Shown here: piece by piece, positions 46,591 through 57,047 of the stretch | How positions within the stretch are numbered: the stretch's first letter is position 1 | Layout: the number at the start of each line of letters is the position of its first letter | Assembly: GCA_963662285.2 (NCBI GenBank) | Contig: CAXXMV010000001.1 | Location: forward strand, 128,001 to 192,000 | Reading direction: 5' to 3' | DNA from: a bacterium | GTDB lineage: Bacteria > Hinthialibacterota > Hinthialibacteria > Hinthialibacterales > Hinthialibacteraceae | DNA length: 64,000 nucleotides | Program-made: the position numbers and the translations under genes | The notes under the pieces: generated by a model | Database searches by the model: none | Seen by the model: the letters and a program-made list of their open reading frames with translations, nothing else | Told to the model about the DNA's origin: nothing

Positions 46591-47793
46591 CTAAATAACT
46601 GATCCTCGATATCAGACACATACAAAAGAATCATGTGAACTTTGATTTAGGATATGGACTTACATCCTCAAGAAACTGTTCAACCGACTGCATTAGCTTT
46701 TCCATTGATGGAAATTGATGATTTCTGGTAATGTTATCATGCAATTGCTTCCAAAGCGTTTCTATCTTGTTTTCGACTGGACTATAGGGAGGGAGAAAAT
46801 GGAGTTTTAATCGTTCTCCATGTTTTTTCATCCAACGCATTGTCTCCTGGCTCTTGTGGATAATGTAATTATCCAAGATAAGGTGAATCACGCGATATCG
46901 ACGATAGCGATAGAGAAGGTCCTTCAACATATCAATGAATAATTTGCTGTTCTTTCGTTTCTCCACCGTCCAAGTCACATTTCCCGTTTTTATATTCAAT
47001 GTCCCGGCGATATAACGTTTTTCATTGACGCCCGGTGTGGGTATTTTTTTTTGTTGATTGGGCAACATATAATCACTTCCTATTCGAGGATTGAGATCAA
47101 CATCTGCTTCATCCTGATAAAAAATCGTTTCGTCATGCGGCATATTTTCCACTAAACGGTGAATCTCTTCAATTCGTTTTTTACGCCCTTTAATAGGGAG
47201 CCTGAGCACCGGACACGCTCGTCTGCGATGGATGTTCAGCCTACGAAGCATTTTCCCCAAGTAGGTTCGCGATAATTCTATCCCGGTTAATTTTTTCATC
47301 TGTTTGGTTAGAAGTTCCTGAGTCCAGGTACTGCGATTCCAACCATAATCTCGAGGAGATTTAGGTATTAATTGTAATAAAGTTGTCAAATAATCAGATG
47401 TGACTTTGCTGGGATGAGCCTCCAATCGTTGATCTTTTAATCCTTGTTCTCCTTCTTCCCGGAACTGGTTGAAAGTTTTGTACACCATTGATCGGGCGCA
47501 CTTTACAGTACGTCGAATATCAGTAGGCGATCTGTTTTCAGCTAACAAAATGATGATTTGATATCGCTGACGAGTATCGGCGCAACGGATTTTTTTTGAT
47601 TGACGCATCAATTTCCTTTTGACTTGCCGTGATATTTTGAATATAATTTGTAACATCAGAAGGCCTCCTTTGGGATTATGATTGATGTCATATCCACATT
47701 ATAAGGGAGGTCTTTTGACTTGTCTGGCCTTTCTGTAACTTATTAGTTTGTTTTTACTTACATAGTGTCCGAGATTTTAAATCATCTATTTAG
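46591..47793 (-). mobile_element. IS630-family insertion sequence
   Basis: Imperfect terminal IRs ctaaataactgat...cagacac and ctaaatagatgat...cggacac around the transposase. Ends are accurate to a few bp. Confidence 0.8.
46631..47656 (-). CDS. IS630-family DDE transposase
   Basis: HTH region with WT motif, YQDEAD, LILDNYIIHK, FLPPYSPVENKIE. Confidence 0.93.
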   Translation of the reverse strand: MLQIIFKISRQVKRKLMRQSKKIRCADTRQRYQIIILLAENRSPTDIRRTVKCARSMVYKTFNQFREEGEQGLKDQRLEAHPSKVTSDYLTTLLQLIPKSPRDYGWNRSTWTQELLTKQMKKLTGIELSRTYLGKMLRRLNIHRRRACPVLRLPIKGRKKRIEEIHRLVENMPHDETIFYQDEADVDLNPRIGSDYMLPNQQKKIPTPGVNEKRYIAGTLNIKTGNVTWTVEKRKNSKLFIDMLKDLLYRYRRYRVIHLILDNYIIHKSQETMRWMKKHGERLKLHFLPPYSPVENKIETLWKQLHDNITRNHQFPSMEKLMQSVEQFLEDVSPYPKSKFT

Positions 47794-49226
47794 GCGAAGG
47801 CGTCATGTTCCTTCTCCAGGAAGCCCTGGATGCGGTTTATAAAGCCTTTAATGTTTACCCAGGTAAACCGGAGAAATACCCTACCTTCGAAGACATTCTG
47901 GAATGGCTGGAAAAACACCCTGCCAAAGGCCGAAAAGCTCTTTGGATGGATTCCACCATGCGAGGCGTAAAATCCATCTGCTTCGGTCACATGGGAAAAG
48001 TCGTCAACACCGCCGTTCAACCAAACCTCGCGTCGCTCCTAGAGAAAAACGTGATCCTGGAATTAGACGGCCTCACCAATGCCGATAAAACCTTCATCAT
48101 CGAATCACTATTGCTCTGGATTCACCATTACCGCCTAGCACAACCACAACGGGAAACCTTCAAGCACGCCATGATCATCGAAGAAGCCCACCACATCCTT
48201 TTAAAAAGAACTGGCGGTCAGGGAGGAGAAGCAGTCACCGACACTATCCTGCGAGAAATCCGCGAACTAGGCGAAGCCATCATCCTGGTCGATCAACACC
48301 CCAGCCTGATCTCCATCCCCGCCTTGGGAAACACCTACACAACCATCGCCATGAACCTTAAACATCGATCAGATGTCAACGCCATCGGAGCAGCCATGTT
48401 GATGGATAACGAAGAAAAAGACATCTTTGGACGTCTCCCCATCGGAATGGCGGTCATCAAACTCCAAGGGCGCTGGCTACAACCATTCCAAATCAAGATC
48501 CCACACCGAAACATACCAAAAGGAGCAATCAACGATTCAAAACTCGCCTGCATCATGAAAGAGAGAAATCCCTTTTCGAATCAAAAACCAGATAAATCGA
48601 GCGTAAGTATCCAACCGGAAGAACAACCAATCGAATTATCCGAGAAAGAACTCGGATTCCTCGTTCACGTACACGAGCAACCGTTCCTCGGAACTGTCGA
48701 GCGCTACCGGCAATTAAACCTAAGCCGCCGTAAAGGAAACGCGATCCGGCAGCAATGTCTGGATAAAGGCCTACTTAAAACAGTCGATATCCCCACTAAA
48801 AGCGGCAAAGTTGTCCTCGTCGAGTTATCCGAGAAAGGAAGAAAACAACTCGTCTTACTCGGACACACCATCCCGAATCGATCTCGCTGGGGAAGCACGG
48901 AACACGAGTTCTGGAAACACAAAGCCGCAAGAAAAATCAGAGATCGAGGATGGAAAGCGGCAATCGAAGAATCCAACCAAGGATTTACCGATATCGTTGC
49001 AACAAAAGCAAAACACAAAATCGCGGTTGAAATCGAAACCGGCAAGTCAGACTGGCGATCCAACATTCAAAAAAACATCCAAAGCGGATTCAAAAACATA
49101 CTGATCCTGGCCACAAACCAAACCACACTCCAAAAAATCACCCAAGAAATCCTGGAAATGAAAACCAAAATCAACATCAAAACCATAACAGCCCAAGAAT
49201 TCCTGGAATTACCCGAAACAAAATGA
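47794..49226 (+). pseudogene. 5'-truncated HerA/VirB4-like P-loop ATPase fused to winged-helix and PD-(D/E)xK-like domains
   Basis: Walker B IIEEAH, LREIRELG, VDQHP, C-terminal GFTDIV...IAVEIETG. No Walker A, and the reading frame runs directly into the IS630 end. Confidence 0.7.
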
Positions 49227-49469
49227 AATAAGTCAAAACTCGAAAAAGAAGGATGAATTGAAGAGATATCACCGATTCCAAAGCGAAATGGTCGATTAAA
49301 CTGATATAGAGATAGTATTAGGTCATTCCCTCTAATGATAAGAATCTTGGAATCCAAGCGGAATCTCCGATTCAGACTTCAATTCCAAGATTCTATGATC
49401 AATATCCAAAGAGGATATCTCTGTATTTATAAAAATCTGACTACATTTTTTTCCTTCTCTGTTATTTCG

Positions 49470-49496
49470 ATTGAGTGATTAAAAAGTGTGTTAAGA
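49470..49496 (+). other. attI-like site / 5' core site of the first gene cassette
   Basis: GATTAAAAAGTGT-GTTAAGA. GTTAAGA (49490-49496) is the exact reverse complement of TCTTAAC, which opens the attC at 51620. Confidence 0.55.
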
Positions 49497-49506
49497 CAAT
49501 AAAATC

Positions 49507-49535
49507 TTGAAATTCACTAAAATGTGTCGTAACAT
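49507..49535 (+). promoter_or_regulatory. Sigma70-like promoter inside the first cassette
   Basis: TTGAAA - 17 bp - TAACAT, about 45 bp upstream of the GTG start. Confidence 0.45.
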
Positions 49536-49580
49536 ACTTAAAACATTTAATTAATTGAAAGTCGAAGAACAAAGGTTCTA

Positions 49581-51596
49581 GTGAAAAGAACACCAATCAG
49601 TCAAAAAACAGTGAAACGTCTTTTCGCGGCCTCTGGCGGAATTTGTGCATTTCCAGGTTGCAATACGAGACTGGTTGATCCAGATTCTGGTGCACTACTC
49701 GGTGAGATGTGCCATATTCACGCTGCTTCACTTGGCGGTCCGCGATATGATCCTTCATTATCTGACGATGATCGAAATAAAGACAGCAACTTGATTATTC
49801 TCTGCCCTACCCATCACAGCCTAATCGATCAGGATGAGGAGACTTATACCTCAGCAAAGTTGAAATCCATCAAAAATACCCACGAAGAGACTGTAATTGC
49901 GATTTTATCCGCAAGCAACACATCGACTATCAAAGAAACTCAGACTTCAGACCTTGCTCGCCAAATTGATTCTGAGTCGGTTGATTTTGCTATTGTGGTA
50001 GCACTCAAAAAAGAATTTGAGGCATTACAACACTACATACCTGAACTTGAACAAGTCACAAGTACCAACGAAGACATGCGGTCATATTACAAAGCAACAC
50101 TTTCTGCAGTTGGAGGTAGCTGTTACAGAATAGTTGTTACCCTATTACCAACTATGGGTAATCTCGATGCTGCACATGCAACAGCTGATTTAATCAATCG
50201 CTGGAATCCACGATACATTCTTGTTACGGGATTAGCAGGAGGTCTGAACCGACAATCTCAGAATTTTGGTGATATTGTTGCTTCTGAAGCGATTGTTTAC
50301 TACGAGCCGGGGAAAGTGCAAGATGGCACAATTGAACCTAGAAACAGACAGTTCTTAGCAGACCGTCGGCTTCTCGATGGATTGCAGAATCTTCGGGACA
50401 CAAACTGGAAGTATTCACTTCCAGAACGCCCTGATGGTAAACCTTCATCCATTGAAATTCCGAGAATACACATTGGCCCAATCGCATCTGGTGAGAAGGT
50501 TATTGCATCGGATGAAGAAGTTTCCAGGCTTTTGTCAAGTCAACGTAACCTAATCGGTATTGAAATGGAGAGCGCAGGAGTGGCTTCCGCCGCTTTTAGT
50601 GCTTTAAAAAAGATTGGATTTATCACCATTAGATCGATTTGTGACTTCGCAGATAACCAGAAAAACGACAACTGGCATTCATATGCGGCACATGCAGCCG
50701 CGGCTTGTCTCCGAGCATTCCTAGTGAGTCGTCCAGTTGGACCATCCGAAGGAGATTGGCCCACACCCCAAACCAGAGGTGAATCTCTTTCGGAAGATCC
50801 TTTAAAACAGAGAAAATTACTTTTTAATGAATTATGCTCGGCTTTTGATATGGAAGATTTTAAGAGTTTTTGCTTCGTCCTTGGGGTGGACGTAGATGAA
50901 TTACCTGGTGATAAGAAATCGGCAAGAGTAAGGGAACTGATATTGCTTTTCGAGCGACAAGGACAAATAGATGCCTTGGAGGAAGCGTTCAGCGATTTCC
51001 GTTTTAATTCAATCGATACTCAGATTAACAACGTAGAAATTATTCAATCAGAGAAAAAAGATAGCATACTACTTAAAGATTACTTTTTAATTGGATGTGG
51101 GATTGGAAATCGCATGGTTATTTTACCAGTTCCACCAGGAAACGCTGAAGACAAAGCTTTATCTGAGTTTGCAGAAAAACTTCATAAACTTGATTTAGGC
51201 AATTCCGAAATACCACAACGGCTTTCAAATATCGCGAAAACTTTGGCAGACAATGAAAACAAGGAAAAAGTCAAATCTGCTTTAGATCAATATTTTGATA
51301 TAATGAACGACTTACCAGATCTTATACACAAAGTAAGTACAGATGAACAGTATAAAGTTATGAACCTTGGTAAACTACTTTTTGAAATTCCAACACTTGC
51401 ATATATTGAAAAAAATAATAATGAGTTGTTACCAACAATTATTGCGTTAGAATCAATAGTGGCACAAGTCGAAATAACCCCAAATATAAAAAAAGAACTA
51501 CTAAATCATATAAAATCTATTCGTGAAGAAGAAGATTATGAATTGTTGATGGATCAGACAAACAAACTTTCAAGAACTATTTACATGGTGCTCTAA
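49581..51596 (+). CDS. HNH endonuclease - purine nucleoside phosphorylase/MTAN - effector-associated (EAD7-like) domain fusion, candidate defence protein
   Basis: SGGICAFPGC...CHIHA...GPRYD...NLIILCPTHH (HNH). AIVVALKKEF, TGLAGG, IASGEKVI, IEMESAG, IRSICDFAD (PNP_UDP_1). FDMEDFKSFCFVLGVDVDELPGDKKSARVRELI (EAD7-like). Confidence 0.85.
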   Translation: MKRTPISQKTVKRLFAASGGICAFPGCNTRLVDPDSGALLGEMCHIHAASLGGPRYDPSLSDDDRNKDSNLIILCPTHHSLIDQDEETYTSAKLKSIKNTHEETVIAILSASNTSTIKETQTSDLARQIDSESVDFAIVVALKKEFEALQHYIPELEQVTSTNEDMRSYYKATLSAVGGSCYRIVVTLLPTMGNLDAAHATADLINRWNPRYILVTGLAGGLNRQSQNFGDIVASEAIVYYEPGKVQDGTIEPRNRQFLADRRLLDGLQNLRDTNWKYSLPERPDGKPSSIEIPRIHIGPIASGEKVIASDEEVSRLLSSQRNLIGIEMESAGVASAAFSALKKIGFITIRSICDFADNQKNDNWHSYAAHAAAACLRAFLVSRPVGPSEGDWPTPQTRGESLSEDPLKQRKLLFNELCSAFDMEDFKSFCFVLGVDVDELPGDKKSARVRELILLFERQGQIDALEEAFSDFRFNSIDTQINNVEIIQSEKKDSILLKDYFLIGCGIGNRMVILPVPPGNAEDKALSEFAEKLHKLDLGNSEIPQRLSNIAKTLADNENKEKVKSALDQYFDIMNDLPDLIHKVSTDEQYKVMNLGKLLFEIPTLAYIEKNNNELLPTIIALESIVAQVEITPNIKKELLNHIKSIREEEDYELLMDQTNKLSRTIYMVL

Positions 51597-51619
51597 ACAT
51601 GCAACAATTTCTAAAAATA

Positions 51620-51726
51620 TCTTAACAATGCTGAGCGGTTCGTACCTTTGCTCCCTCGCTAAGCTTCGGGAGAACAAAAACACTCGATCGGAATCCCTAC
51701 GGGCATCGCTCAGCGCCGCATTATCT
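51620..51726 (+). other. attC site 1 (107 bp, core G mutated to A)
   Basis: TCTTAAC...GCTGAGCG...tttgctccc/gggagaacaaa...CGCTCAGC...ATTATCT forms an extended imperfect hairpin. Confidence 0.7.
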
Positions 51727-51732
51727 CCTAAT

Positions 51733-52746
51733 ATGATGCCACAAGAATATTCAGAAGATTTTGAGACTAAAAATGCAAACTTTGACCGACCCCATATAAT
51801 TTTGCTGGGCGCTGGTGCAAGTTATGCGGCATTTCCTAATGGGGATCGTAATGGTAATAAGTTACCTTTACTTAGAGATTTTGTGAATGTAATTGGCTTA
51901 GAAAAAGAAATGAAGGAAGCAAAAGTTTCTCCACCATATAAGGATTTTGAAAGCATCTATTCAGCAATACATTCTAATCCAGACTTAATACGAGTCAAAG
52001 AATCTATTGATAAGAAAGTTACCGACTACTTTTCAAACTTAGAATTACCCGATGAACCAACCCTGTATGATCACTTGGTTCTTTCTTTAAGGCCAAAAGA
52101 TGTAATCGCTACTTTTAACTGGGATCCTTTTCTATGGGATGCCCTTCATCGTAATCATAAATTTACAGAGGGCCCCTGTGCTCTTTTTTTACATGGTTCG
52201 GTAGCAATATCCAGGTGCCCTGCTTGTGAAATAGTGGTTTCTCGTAGCGCTATAAGATGCCATAAATGTGCTGTCGATCTTGAAAATATTCCCATTCTTT
52301 TCCCTGTAGACAAAAAAGAATATATAACAGATCCTGTTATTGCTGGTTACTGGCGTACTTTAAAAAGAGCCATGAAGATTGCTTGGGTATTTACCGTATT
52401 CGGTTATAGCGCACCAAAGACTGACGTGGAAGCTATAGCACTTCTAAAAGAAGGATGGGGTAGTGCTAATAATCGAGAGTTAGAACAGATAGAAATTATT
52501 GATATCGTAGATGAAGATGCTCTAATAAAATCATGGGAAGAGTTTATACATACTCATCATTATTCTGTTTTAGATGATTTTTATAAATCTTTTGTTGGTG
52601 AGCATCCTCGAAGGAGTTGCGAGGCGTATTGGAATCAAAATATGGAATGCATGTTTATAGAGCCTTACCCAATGCCTCATAATGTACAATTCAATGAACT
52701 TTATGATTGGTTACGACCTCGAATAAATGCTGAGAAAAAGAGATAA
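51733..52746 (+). CDS. SIR2-like (sirtuin-fold NADase) protein with CxxC/CxxC insert, candidate defence protein
   Basis: LLGAGAS, ATFNWD, LHGSV, CPAC...CHKC, FGYS. Start moved to MMPQ because the longer ORF runs through attC1. Confidence 0.82.
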   Translation: MMPQEYSEDFETKNANFDRPHIILLGAGASYAAFPNGDRNGNKLPLLRDFVNVIGLEKEMKEAKVSPPYKDFESIYSAIHSNPDLIRVKESIDKKVTDYFSNLELPDEPTLYDHLVLSLRPKDVIATFNWDPFLWDALHRNHKFTEGPCALFLHGSVAISRCPACEIVVSRSAIRCHKCAVDLENIPILFPVDKKEYITDPVIAGYWRTLKRAMKIAWVFTVFGYSAPKTDVEAIALLKEGWGSANNRELEQIEIIDIVDEDALIKSWEEFIHTHHYSVLDDFYKSFVGEHPRRSCEAYWNQNMECMFIEPYPMPHNVQFNELYDWLRPRINAEKKR

Positions 52747-52820: not shown

Positions 52821-53861
52821 ATGAGCAGGCCGATCTTCATAAGTCATACCGTAGCGAACAAAGAGTTGGCCGATAAGTTTGTGGATCTCCTTGAGACCGG
52901 CGTCGGAATTCCCGACCGTGATATCTTCTGTTCGTCGTTGGAAGGCATGGGAATCCCAAGTGGCCGAAACTTCGTGGATTTCATTCGCGCCCAAATCAAA
53001 GAGCCACGTGTTGTGATACTCCTGCTGTCGCCACAGTATTTTGATAGCCAATTTTGCCTCTGTGAGCTGGGAGCTGCTTGGGTTCTTACCCACCAGCTCA
53101 TCCCACTGCTTGTCCCGCCTCTGGAGTTCAGTGACGTGAAAGCTGTTCTTACAGGAGTCCAAGTCCTCAAGATCAATGACGGTGCCGCGCTCAACCAAAT
53201 GCAGCAGGACTTGATTGATGGCTTGAGTATCAAGGGCAAAGCATTTGCCCGATGGGAGGCCAAGAGGAACAAGTTTTTGGAGTCTATTGAGGGAATCGAG
53301 AAGAGTAGCCCGGTTGCTTCTACAGTCAGCCGAAAAGAATATGACGAACTGAAGCAAAAGTATGATGGCGCTGTGTCCGAAATCGAGTATATGGGTGAAG
53401 AGATTGAGGAGAAAGACGGACTGATAGAGAAACTAAAATCTGCGAAAGACTCAGAGGATGTGAAGGCCATTGTCGCAGAATCTCTCAGCGAAAGAGAGCA
53501 ATTTGATGAGATTGTCTATCGGGCGAAGAACGCTCTGAAACCGTTGCCCTCAATTGTGGAAGAAGCACTGTATTACCATTTCCGAGATGAGTATCTCCCT
53601 TGGCCAAACCCGTTAGATAACGACCGAAAAGACGAAGTCAATCAGGCTATCGAGGAGGACTATTTGGAGGGCCGTGATGAAGGTGTCGAAGTGGTTGAGG
53701 AGGATCCTCGGATTGCCGGGGCCCGCTCGGAACTCTGGGAACTCCGGTCATTTGTGAGCAGTATTGACGAGGAATCAGAATTCAACGACTACTATTCAGA
53801 AACGTATAGTCACCGACTCAATTTCGAGTCGAGACGCTTTTGGGATACACATCTATTTTGA
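52821..53861 (+). CDS. TIR-domain protein with coiled coil and acidic C-terminal domain, candidate defence protein
   Basis: IFISH, IFCSS, GRNFVDFI, SPQYFDSQFCLCELGAAW (catalytic Glu). The AGGAGG RBS overlaps the cassette core site. Confidence 0.9.
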   Translation: MSRPIFISHTVANKELADKFVDLLETGVGIPDRDIFCSSLEGMGIPSGRNFVDFIRAQIKEPRVVILLLSPQYFDSQFCLCELGAAWVLTHQLIPLLVPPLEFSDVKAVLTGVQVLKINDGAALNQMQQDLIDGLSIKGKAFARWEAKRNKFLESIEGIEKSSPVASTVSRKEYDELKQKYDGAVSEIEYMGEEIEEKDGLIEKLKSAKDSEDVKAIVAESLSEREQFDEIVYRAKNALKPLPSIVEEALYYHFRDEYLPWPNPLDNDRKDEVNQAIEEDYLEGRDEGVEVVEEDPRIAGARSELWELRSFVSSIDEESEFNDYYSETYSHRLNFESRRFWDTHLF

Positions 53862-55515: not shown

Positions 55516-57047
55516 GTAACGATTTAGTCTTCTGAAAAAATAAATTACACCGAGCGTTACTTCAGGGGCGGTTTCGAAGTTTTATGTAGTATGAACCGAA
55601 ACAAGGAAACCGCGCAGAGAATTCTCCAGGAAATCCTGAAAGGCGTACGGGAACTGACCGAAGAGTCGATTCGCGATCTCATTCAGGAAGACCCGGAAGC
55701 AGCAGTTTTTCTCATTCTCGAACAGGCCCTCCGACTCAAGAAGGCTCTGGCGGCGCAACAAACCAAGAAAATCAGTACGCCATCCGGGATGGTTCCTCCA
55801 TACGAGAAAACCGCCAAAGAAAAAAAGGATAAAAAACGCGGGCGAAAACGGGGACATCCTGGAAGCGGGCGCAAGAAAAACACGAAAATCACGAATCGAG
55901 TACAGCATCCTCCACTGGAGCGATGCCCGGATTGCGGAGGACCCGTCACTCCTTGCCAGGGCGAAACCGCCAAACGAACCCGCGTGATCGAAGACATCCC
56001 GGCGAATATCGAACCGGAGGTCACCGAACACGAAATTCCCCGCTGTTATTGCCCGCACTGCAAAAAACTGGTGGAGCCCAAAGTCGAAGACGCGCTGCCC
56101 AACGCGCGATTGGGAAATCGGGCGCTGGCTCTGTCCGCCCATTGGCACTATGGACTGGGAATGCCCTCCCGGCAGATTGTCGACCTCCTGAGCGGACACC
56201 TAAACACCGTCGTCTCTCCGGGAGGATTGTTCGGTATGTGGAAACGCCTAGCCGATTGGCTGCAACCGTGGTGCGAGCAGTTGATTGATGAAATGCTGGA
56301 AAGCACGGTCCTGCATGCGGATGAGACAGGCTGGCGCGTCAACGGGAAAACGCACTGGCTCTGGTGTTTCACCAACCCGGATGCCACGTTTTACATGATT
56401 CATCCCAGCCGGGGCGATCCAGCGCTGTTCGAATTTTTTCGGGAGACCTTCGAGGGCGTTCTGGTAAGCGATTTCTGGGCGTGTTACGCGCACGTCGACT
56501 CGACGCATCAGTATTGCCTGGCGCATTTGTTGCGCGAATTCAAAAAGGTGGATGGAACCAACGCATCGGCGGTTTGGAAAGAGTTTTCCAAGAAAGCGAA
56601 GCGGCTGTTTGGCGATGCGCTTCGATTGTACCATCGGGAGGGATACGATCCCCAACGGTTTCAATCGCGCATCGACCGGCTCCACGAACGCTTGATTGAT
56701 TTGATGCTGATTCAATCTACAGACAAGGATGTCAAGCGGATCGCCAAACGCCTGGAAAAATACTGGGACGAACTGTTGGTCTTTTTGACTCACCCGGAAG
56801 TTCCTCCCACCAACAATCACGGCGAACGGGAAATTCGCCCGGCGGTGATTATGCGCAAGATGATTCAAGGAAACCAAAGCGAAGCGGGAGCGAAAACGCA
56901 GTCGATTCTGATGACGGTTTTTCGCACTCTCAAACGCCGCGGCTACAATCCGGTGGACGCGGTGGTGGATTCGCTGAAAACCGCCATCCGCACCGGTCAA
57001 TTGCCCCCTTTACCATTTCCACTGCCTTCAAACAACTAAATCGTTAC
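55516..57047 (+). mobile_element. Intact single-ORF IS66-family element (ISBst12-like organisation)
   Basis: 13-bp perfect TIRs gtaacgatttagt / actaaatcgttac and 8-bp TSD taaatatc at 55508-55515 and 57048-57055. Confidence 0.95.
55591..57039 (+). CDS. IS66-family DDE transposase
   Basis: STPSG, GRKRGHPG, CPDCG/CPHC Zn finger, HADETGW, VSDF, QYCLAHLLR, TNNHGEREIR. Confidence 0.95.
   Translation: MNRNKETAQRILQEILKGVRELTEESIRDLIQEDPEAAVFLILEQALRLKKALAAQQTKKISTPSGMVPPYEKTAKEKKDKKRGRKRGHPGSGRKKNTKITNRVQHPPLERCPDCGGPVTPCQGETAKRTRVIEDIPANIEPEVTEHEIPRCYCPHCKKLVEPKVEDALPNARLGNRALALSAHWHYGLGMPSRQIVDLLSGHLNTVVSPGGLFGMWKRLADWLQPWCEQLIDEMLESTVLHADETGWRVNGKTHWLWCFTNPDATFYMIHPSRGDPALFEFFRETFEGVLVSDFWACYAHVDSTHQYCLAHLLREFKKVDGTNASAVWKEFSKKAKRLFGDALRLYHREGYDPQRFQSRIDRLHERLIDLMLIQSTDKDVKRIAKRLEKYWDELLVFLTHPEVPPTNNHGEREIRPAVIMRKMIQGNQSEAGAKTQSILMTVFRTLKRRGYNPVDAVVDSLKTAIRTGQLPPLPFPLPSNN

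Follow-up and report, generated by a model that had tools for sequence, protein, structure and literature searches.

An HNH nuclease-nucleosidase-EAD7 protein with a new helical C-terminal domain, encoded in a transposase-flanked island of Hinthialibacterota: a candidate single-chain immune effector

We describe a gene for a four-domain protein, HNH-PNP-EAD7-X, found at positions 49581..51596 (671 aa) of a 64,000-nucleotide stretch of bacterial DNA from the phylum Hinthialibacterota (assembly GCA_963662285.2, contig CAXXMV010000001.1, positions 128,001 to 192,000 of the forward strand; referred to below as the window and numbered from its first letter, with all features on the forward strand unless stated otherwise). 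The chain carries an HNH nuclease domain, a nucleosidase domain of the PNP/MTAN fold and an effector-associated domain (EAD) of the EAD7 family, which together form a conserved cassette present in many other bacteria, and it ends in a helical domain, here termed X, which belongs to a family of its own. Both catalytic centres are nearly invariant in the cassette family, and EAD7 is solitary in all genomes checked. The explanation that we prefer, and to which we give a little more than even credence, is that the protein acts on its own in abortive infection, as a double-warhead effector that is switched on by assembly and regulated by X.

Domains of the protein and their conservation

The gene is the sole long open reading frame (ORF) of its region: its translation is free of internal stops, the opposite strand is stop-rich, and its GTG start codon aligns with the start Met of the homologues. 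The 100% identical record in the protein collection is the window's own protein. The region 49400-51800 is present intact, in one piece and with zero differences, in the Logan assemblies of two runs from a single sample, which rules out only an artefact of a single assembly, and the sample may be the window's own source. An earlier note on this DNA, made from the letters alone, had read the frame as HNH, PNP, EAD7 and a helical C-terminus and had listed the motifs CAFPGC, CHI and CPTHH and, for PNP, EME and an Asp (D355 in our numbering); Pfam, PADLOC and AlphaFold2 (AF2) agree with these domain calls, and all the motifs are found in the translation.

The N-terminal part (aa 1-115; 49581..49925) is an HNH (ββα-Me) nuclease domain of the Cap5/SPARHA type, as judged from Pfam, PADLOC and Protein Data Bank (PDB) searches. 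Pfam recognises HNH_2 at aa 22-84 with E 1.8e-4 and 21.7 bits, the cut-off being 21, and the evidence from PADLOC is much stronger: PDC-M68A (2.2e-32, profile positions 5-113 of 253; PDC names denote candidate systems), the endonuclease effector of CBASS, the cyclic oligonucleotide-based antiphage signalling system (7.6e-27), and SAVED_HNH (3.4e-24). The SduA profile also matches (6.8e-23), at positions 15-135 of 326 only, through the N-terminal HNH part, and Pfam gives no match to DUF4263, the nuclease domain of Shedu. Among the sequences of solved structures the best match is the SPARHA effector (9om4 chain A, 8.3e-17, aa 7-111), followed by the Cap5 chains 7rwk, 7rwm, 8fm1 and 8ysq, with E-values from 4.5e-9 (7rwk) to 7.5e-4. 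The motifs CAFPGC, CHI and CPTHH lie at aa 22-27, 44-46 and 75-79, respectively, and in the 82-sequence alignment described below H45 is retained in 74 of the 74 sequences in which the position is present, N70 in 74 of 75, and H78 and H79 each in 75 of 75. By analogy, the domain would be a DNase of the kind used by Cap5 and SPARHA. The HNH domain of Cap5 is inactive until assembled. In SPARHA, where HNH is the effector of a short Argonaute, it becomes active once HNH tetramers have built filaments, according to the paper that cites 9om4 (PMC12738770).

The nucleosidase domain of the PNP/MTAN fold follows at aa 136-380 (49986..50720; Pfam PNP_UDP_1, E 6.2e-21), and its matches suggest that it is of the immune-effector kind. 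In PADLOC it is matched by the profile of the CBASS PN-superfamily effector (4e-25) and by PDC-M60C (4.4e-43, profile positions 135-398 of 407), and the protein-collection search returned PNP-SAVED proteins at 1.7e-48 to 5e-26. Among PDB sequences it matches MTA/SAH nucleosidases at about 1e-10. The top NCBIfam match is the MTAN equivalog, whose score of 92 bits falls short of the cut-off of 169, and we therefore do not take the domain for a housekeeping enzyme. Taken together, these scores suggest a position nearer the immune effector PNPs than the housekeeping MTAN. The EME motif lies at aa 328-330 and D355 within ICDFAD; E328 is found in 82, E330 in 80 and D355 in 82 of the 82 aligned sequences. 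By a manual alignment to MTAN, D355 would be equivalent to the Asp targeted by mutation in Cap17 and DtcC. The PNP domains of these two proteins cleave the N-glycosidic bond of both ATP and dATP (bioRxiv 10.1101/2023.01.24.525353), and the PNP domain described here would by extension be an ATP/dATP nucleosidase, releasing adenine and leaving (deoxy)ribose triphosphate.

Both likenesses had been pointed out in the earlier note, that of the HNH domain to CBASS Cap5-type nucleases, now backed by the CBASS effector profile and the Cap5 chains, and that of the PNP domain to effector PNPs, with which the PNP-SAVED and PN-superfamily matches and the sub-threshold MTAN score agree. It had also left a choice between two effector activities in one chain and a PNP that merely senses nucleotides or oligomerises. 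Across the cassette family both catalytic centres are strongly constrained, and therefore two active enzymes are favoured over an enzyme and a scaffold; the second option is disfavoured by the retention of E328, E330 and D355.

EAD7 (aa 414-470; 50820..50990) is identified by Pfam with E 1.9e-17 (63.2 bits against a cut-off of 32). In an AF2 model of aa 385-490 its helical core, with a predicted local distance difference test score (pLDDT) of ~88, forms a small bundle of four to five helices, compared with the six of the death fold. The structure comparison with VIA-align places the caspase recruitment domain (CARD) of NOD1 on top (Z 7.5, 84 residues aligned, root mean square deviation 3.4), with the ARC CARD (6.8), the NLRP14 pyrin domain (PYD, 6.2), Fas/FADD (6.1) and the bacterial death-like domain 8ss1 (6.1) among the further matches; by title, 28 of the 50 matches listed are CARD, PYD, death domain or death effector domain structures, all matches have Z <8, and Foldseek returned nothing for this model at E<=1e-3. 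"Death-fold-like" is therefore a reasonable but unproven description, with individually weak scores. In the wording of the earlier note, "death-like EAD7", the family name is firm and the adjective applies at the level of the predicted fold.

Kaur et al. (PMC7159879 and PMC8195603) describe EADs as small adaptor domains whose homotypic contacts couple effectors to a core system. According to them, a locus or genome holds multiple copies, the domains tend to be terminal, and EAD7 is among those that recruit effectors. This multi-copy expectation fails for EAD7 here, which is solitary in the 9 genomes checked. In the assembly that contains the window (7.29 Mb, 92.5% complete) the query gene gives the single EAD7 match at E<=0.01, so that the statement of the earlier note that the window holds no EAD partner can be extended to the whole assembly. 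We ran the same profile against ten further genomes that bear relatives: eight of them contain a family member with EAD7, and in none of these eight is there a second EAD7 over the cut-off, while of the two without any match one has a relative that lacks EAD7 and the other a gene cut by the contig end. The single additional weak match (22 bits, sub-threshold) is spurious, since it falls on a Cache-HAMP-adenylate-cyclase receptor, in the linker that joins HAMP to the cyclase. The nine genomes are not independent, as they include three of Bradyrhizobium and two of Agrobacterium/Rhizobium, and the negatives hold at the sensitivity of the Pfam model, which divergent EADs could escape. The EAD7 of the query is also internal, at aa 414-470 of 671 and followed by X; 72 of the 82 sequences in the alignment end within 30 aa of EAD7. 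The solitary EAD7 points to self-assembly or to some other ligand.

The cassette family and domain X

A search with the query in a collection of 5.8 billion proteins scored 7999 candidates, of which 96 reached E<=1e-3. Most are 470-480 aa long, cover ~70% of the query with an identity of up to 77%, carry PF01048 and PF19960, and end a few residues past EAD7 in the alignment, which defines a core of ~477 aa. They come from Bradyrhizobium (including Bradyrhizobium elkanii), Agrobacterium/Rhizobium, Acidobacteriota, Planctomycetota, Desulfobacteraceae, Candidatus Thiodiazotropha, Geobacter, Anaerolineae and many metagenomes, and where they have a name it is "nucleoside phosphorylase", "phosphorylase family protein" or "hypothetical". 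We aligned the query with P0003-P0083 (82 sequences; P0084-P0097, which have only the PNP domain or share less, were omitted). All three domains are present in 69 of the 82, EAD7 is missing in 2, and part or all of the HNH domain is missing in 11, all of which keep PNP; seven of these 11 (373-399 aa) are without nearly the whole HNH domain, and some may be truncated gene calls. The architecture had been called unusual, an impression that does not hold for the 477-aa HNH-PNP-EAD7 core, which is a widespread family.

Extensions of >30 aa at the C-terminus are found in 10 of the 82 sequences. P0011 carries an additional TIR domain behind the cassette, and the remaining extensions, such as those of P0016, P0019, P0030 and P0056, contain no Pfam family. 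A search among longer proteins added P0268 (1305 aa), which continues from HNH-PNP-EAD7 into a weak NACHT match (E 1.5e-3, below the cut-off) and TPR. The relatives that share the PNP domain have architectures typical of immunity and include, according to Pfam, PNP-SAVED (P0084) and PNP-STAND proteins (P0088 and P0270, among them PNP-NB-ARC). Other double-effector or hybrid proteins with a related PNP domain were seen as well: dCTP-deaminase-PNP (P0087), TIR-PNP-NACHT-TPR (P0269) and the DtcC-like REC-PNP-EAD7 (P0083).

The neighbourhoods of six homologue loci from other phyla differ from each other and share no partner gene. The neighbours include insertion sequence (IS) elements, a methylase, a STAND NTPase, KaiC-like ATPases and other PNP proteins (PNP-TPR; PNP with SLATT and a receiver domain). 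In a metagenome-assembled genome of Desulfobacteraceae (L010:932-3692) an inserted ISL3-family transposase splits the cassette gene, with the HNH part on one side and the remainder of PNP on the other. In Agrobacterium larrymoorei (L007:9688-15538) the cassette gene is followed by an ORF of 1157 aa without a Pfam family and by genes for a receiver-domain protein, another PNP protein and a SLATT_1 protein, and this may be a nucleotide-signalling conflict locus. Closer to the query the family is not seen: none of 60 related genomes contains a full-length homologue, five having partial HNH-like or MTAN-like matches only, and neither the cassette nor X was found in any of the 34 other species genomes of the phylum (35 in the collection).

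Domain X (aa ~498-670; 51072..51590) is a conserved, all-helical domain, over which Pfam has no model, either in the query or in its relatives. A search with aa 476-671 against 1.84 billion representative proteins found 47 proteins at E<=1e-3, 25 of them at E<=1e-10 (best 4.7e-23); in nearly all 47 the match covers ~170-190 residues at the C-terminal end of a protein of 185-650 aa. A hidden Markov model (HMM) of the X family matches the query with E 5.2e-57 over profile positions 3-188 of 188, and the alignment reveals the motifs F-L-x-G-C-G-[VI]-G-N-R near the start and W-F-x-L-G-x-L-L in the middle. AF2 predicts ten helices with a mean pLDDT of 88.1 and a predicted template-modelling score of 0.84. 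The "about 190 aa of unknown helical C-terminus" of the earlier note is thus helical in the model, as stated there, and is more than an unclassified tail: a distinct conserved domain with 47 relatives and effector fusions of its own. On the grounds of these matches X is a new helical domain family, which sets the query apart within the cassette family, as the other 81 aligned members lack it (next-best E 0.89 for the X HMM).

Among the 47 relatives, TIR_2 accompanies X in 8, a winged-helix DNA-binding domain (Trans_reg_C) in 2, a TIR of the CAP12/Pycsar type, there C-terminal to X, in 2, and Trypsin_2 (25.9 bits, just below the cut-off), a DUF676/α/β-hydrolase and EAD4 in 1 each, while the remaining 32 have no meaningful Pfam partner. 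Of 21 short forms examined, 12 have a strongly hydrophobic N-terminal 19-mer (mean Kyte-Doolittle value of 19 residues >1.6) and look membrane-anchored. Because X follows effectors elsewhere and the position behind EAD7 is taken by sensor-like or further effector modules in other members of the cassette family, we consider the cassette to be the effector and assign to X, most probably, a regulatory role, as a sensor or as a switch of assembly. The guanine plus cytosine (GC) content is 0.40-0.47 in the core and drops to 0.28-0.37 over X, as expected of a recombinational fusion.

Further searches with X added no relative and no clue. The wide VIA-align comparison gave a top Z of 9.0, with cytochrome bd subunits and generic helical bundles, which is under the meaningful level for helical proteins; the profile search against PDB sequences gave a designed protein as its best match (E 0.011); the ESM Atlas gave no usable match, and the cluster names of the X relatives are uninformative. 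Over the 33,730 six-frame ORFs of the genome the X HMM finds only the query. A metagenome scan with the X alignment produced 24 pattern matches with no X relative among them, a scan with the X-family protein P0106 produced 38 loci that match its TIR part only, with X in none, and a scan of viral contigs for X found none. The prediction of an X homodimer (two copies) scored 0.00 against a mark of 0.42 and speaks neither way. We also considered whether X is EACC1 and rejected this identification, EACC1 being described by Kaur et al. as a domain with a single transmembrane segment.

Proposed function and competing explanations

We infer that the gene was acquired horizontally and encodes a single-chain immune effector. 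A trigger, presumably a phage cue, would be sensed, and X and/or EAD7 would drive the self-assembly of HNH-PNP-EAD7-X; assembly would put the HNH domain into the oligomeric state needed in Cap5 and SPARHA and would also switch on PNP, and DNA would be degraded and ATP and dATP depleted, so that the infected cell would be halted. The setting is supportive: the gene lies in an island flanked by IS630 and IS66 transposase genes, in the company of a SIR2-like gene and a gene for an SpbK-like TIR protein (see below), and its distribution is sporadic. A bolder version, which we regard as possible but on the doubtful side, is that the cassette is a partner-independent "suicide cassette" in which the solitary EAD7 nucleates self-assembly in the manner of CARD/PYD filaments, and that X is a compact sensor or switch. 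If true, the first half would be a departure from the rule of homotypic EAD pairs, and by the second X would define minimal one-protein immune systems of the forms TIR-X, TM-X (with a transmembrane segment), peptidase-X, hydrolase-X and HNH-PNP-EAD7-X.

Several observations speak against an assembly-activated effector regulated by X. The fusion to X is a singleton, found in 1 of 82 sequences of the cassette family and 1 of 48 of the X family, and, placed as it is at a drop in GC content, may be a young recombination product that perhaps does not function. The free-standing 477-aa relatives have neither X nor a detectable partner, which leaves the trigger of the core cassette unexplained. Genomic context was obtained for no other protein of the X family, and a sensor cannot be told from a partner adaptor; the fold gives no functional clue, since Foldseek finds nothing for X in PDB at E<=1e-3. 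An assembly completeness of 92.5% leaves room for a partner in unassembled sequence. In the literature we found no report of activity, toxicity or phage protection for any member of the cassette family. Finally, the AT-rich region 5' of the gene (49227..49580, GC 0.30-0.39) contains two sigma-70-like sites (49371-49399 and 49507-49535), from which the gene may have its own promoter, but a consensus scan of this region finds no more such sites than in shuffled sequence.

The most obvious alternative is classical EAD coupling, in which the cassette would be recruited by an EAD7-EAD7 contact to an unrecognised sensor encoded elsewhere (for example a STAND NTPase or vWA-MoxR-VMAP system), with X as an extra adaptor. 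It has on its side the EAD principle of Kaur et al. and the place of EAD7 among the recruiters of effectors (PMC7159879 and PMC8195603), the joining of the cassette to a weak NACHT match and TPR within the single chain of P0268, and the incompleteness of the assembly. We nevertheless think it unlikely, if the least so of the alternatives: there is no second EAD7 in the query's genome at E<=0.01, nor over the cut-off in the eight others, the six homologue loci have no partner gene in common, and the EAD7 of the query is internal rather than terminal. Another possibility is that PNP stands in the place of SAVED as a regulator, which binds or cleaves a nucleotide, perhaps making a signal, and gates the HNH domain by oligomerisation. 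PNP-fold enzymes are obligate oligomers, and the order HNH-then-PNP mirrors the order HNH-then-SAVED of Cap5. Generation of a signal by base release has been proposed for PNPases in Kaur et al. and in earlier work referred to there (PMC7159879). Against a regulatory PNP speak the retention of its catalytic residues in 80-82 of 82 sequences, the 11 of 82 that are without part or all of the HNH domain and yet keep PNP, the use of PNP as the sole effector by the closest relatives, which have SAVED, REC or STAND sensors, and the direct depletion of ATP by the PNP domains of Cap17 and DtcC (bioRxiv 10.1101/2023.01.24.525353); we therefore rate this option slightly lower still.

It could also be that the fusion to X arose by accident as an island full of IS elements decayed, when recombination joined the 3' part of an unrelated gene to the cassette, with an inactive or mis-regulated product. 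The singleton architecture, the GC drop from 0.40-0.47 to 0.28-0.37 at the junction, the two transposases of the island and its HerA-like gene, which is probably truncated, and independent sequence support that comes from the runs of one sample, perhaps the source sample, would all agree with such an origin. The frame, however, is open throughout, X is complete and has a confidently predicted fold, all catalytic residues are intact, and fusions of effectors to X are the rule in the X family, for which reasons we consider an accident quite improbable. Least credible of all, in our view, is a function outside immunity, with the cassette acting as a toxin, be it within a toxin-antitoxin or addiction module or in competition between bacteria. 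Both enzymatic domains are predicted to be toxic and the gene is sporadic and mobile, as such toxins would be, yet in the six loci no small neighbour gene is conserved that might encode an antitoxin or an immunity protein, no secretion or delivery domain (Rhs, PAAR or a type VI or type VII secretion system marker) was seen by eye among the Pfam and PADLOC matches, and the NACHT-TPR, TIR, REC and SAVED-type fusions of the relatives are of the immune-sensor kind.

Comparison with described systems places the parts of the protein in known settings and the whole in none of them. The earlier note knew of no named system with this architecture, and neither PADLOC nor PDB nor the literature searched gave a full-length match to one. 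We found no description of HNH-PNP-EAD7 in full-text literature, with the reservation that the supplementary tables of Kaur 2020 and Rousset 2023 may list it; two supplement files of Kaur 2020 do not contain the term "EAD7", and its larger architecture listing (Figure 1-source data 1) may hold it. HNH, PNP and EAD parts, and not their combination, are found in the pertinent passages of Kaur 2020/2021, Rousset 2023, Kibby 2022, an amyloid-signalling preprint and Altae-Tran 2023. With CBASS Cap5 the protein shares an N-terminal HNH domain of the same type in front of a second or regulatory domain. In contrast to Cap5, it has no SAVED domain (Pfam, E<=1), the PADLOC SAVED_HNH matches end at about position 174, within the HNH part, and a PNP enzyme sits where Cap5 has SAVED. 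A CD-NTase (SMODS, PF18144) gave 0 matches in the 92.5% complete genome, and no nucleotidyltransferase family was seen by eye among the Pfam and PADLOC matches of the island ORFs; with neither SAVED nor CD-NTase, we rejected membership in CBASS. SPARHA provides, in the HNH-APAZ effector 9om4, the best structure match and the model of activation by assembly that we have used here, but no APAZ or Argonaute family was recognised by eye in the Pfam and PADLOC matches of the query or its neighbours.

The similarity to Cap17 and DtcC consists in a PNP_UDP_1 domain with the conserved catalytic Asp, in the PNP-SAVED and REC-PNP relatives and in the setting of a defence island; the query differs in having no sensor of cyclic oligonucleotides, no receiver domain and no two-component partners, and in its additional HNH and EAD7 domains. 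The main text of Rousset et al. mentions neither HNH nor EAD (bioRxiv 10.1101/2023.01.24.525353, term search). Detocs has a receiver domain on its PNP protein, together with the DtcA kinase and DtcB; the query has no Response_reg in Pfam, and no kinase or receiver family was seen by eye among the matches of its neighbours. The relative P0083 (REC-PNP-EAD7) does have a receiver domain. The EAD-coupled conflict systems resemble the query in that an effector is joined to EAD7, and PNPase and HNH are both listed among their effector domains (passages of Kaur et al. 2020/2021, PMC7159879 and PMC8195603); they differ in the internal position of EAD7 in the query and in that neither its genome nor 8 others yielded a core component with a cognate EAD7. 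In the same passages the HNH-PNPase-EAD7 architecture goes unnamed, and the architecture listing may contain it. bNACHT and Avs are approached by P0268, with its cassette before a weak NACHT and TPR, and by P0269, also a double effector, whereas the query has no NTPase family in Pfam and carries X (~175 aa, helical) in place of an NTPase-repeat sensor. The strongest PADLOC matches, PDC-M60 (gene C) and PDC-M68 (gene A), are at the level of single domains.

The enzymatic parts are known from characterised defence systems (Cap5, SPARHA, Cap17, Detocs) and in themselves bring no new principle. What stands out is the arrangement, uncharacterised as far as the literature searched goes and yet widespread and conserved, which couples the predicted destruction of DNA with the predicted depletion of ATP and dATP. 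EAD7 without a cognate partner in 9 genomes runs counter to the published expectation for EADs, and X, which elsewhere follows TIR and other cell-killing modules, may represent a trigger domain of a new type. If functional, the protein would add a compact single-gene, dual-mode effector to bacterial immunity and offer a handle on small death-fold-like adaptors in bacteria.

The island and its other genes

On its left side the island is bounded by a gene for an IS630-type transposase (46631..47656, reverse strand; Pfam DDE_3, 7.2e-27). Next to it lies an ORF of 473 aa (47805..49226), for which Pfam has no match and which PADLOC recognises as HerA-like (4.6e-7), aa 84-217 matching only the C-terminal part of the profile (positions 404-541 of 580); this is probably a truncated gene of a HerA-type ATPase. 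By eye, the protein continues into a winged-helix and a PD-(D/E)xK-like C-terminus.

Downstream of the HNH-PNP-EAD7-X gene, 136 bp past its stop, a gene for a SIR2-like protein begins (51733..52746, 337 aa from its true start M36, placed by 86% identity to P0148 from residue 1). The Pfam, PADLOC and PDB sequence searches are blank for this protein, and its sirtuin identity comes only from ESM Atlas clusters (sirtuin-type or SIR2_2, score 0.91-0.97) and from the names of two sources; GAGAS, FNWD and LHGS motifs and two CxxC pairs can be seen by eye. It has 4527 relatives at E<=1e-3, typically ~336 aa long and stand-alone. We take it for an independent module because its family is far larger than the cassette family; it may be a stand-alone SIR2-type defence gene for which there is no model. 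The idea that it is a specific partner of HNH-PNP-EAD7-X was rejected, given the more than 4500 stand-alone relatives and the start 136 bp downstream. Sharing of X with the neighbouring genes was likewise rejected: in BLASTP, X matches the SIR2-like protein with E 8.2 and the TIR protein described next with E 1.5.

That protein is encoded at 52821..53861 and is an SpbK-like TIR-domain protein (Pfam TIR_2, 2.8e-12; PADLOC spbK, 8.2e-36), without domain X by both BLASTP and the X HMM. On the right side the island is bounded by an IS66-family transposase gene (55591..57039; Pfam DDE_Tnp_IS66, 1.2e-43). In the SpbK-like protein, the TIR domain is followed by ~190 aa that look coiled-coil-like and belong to no family.

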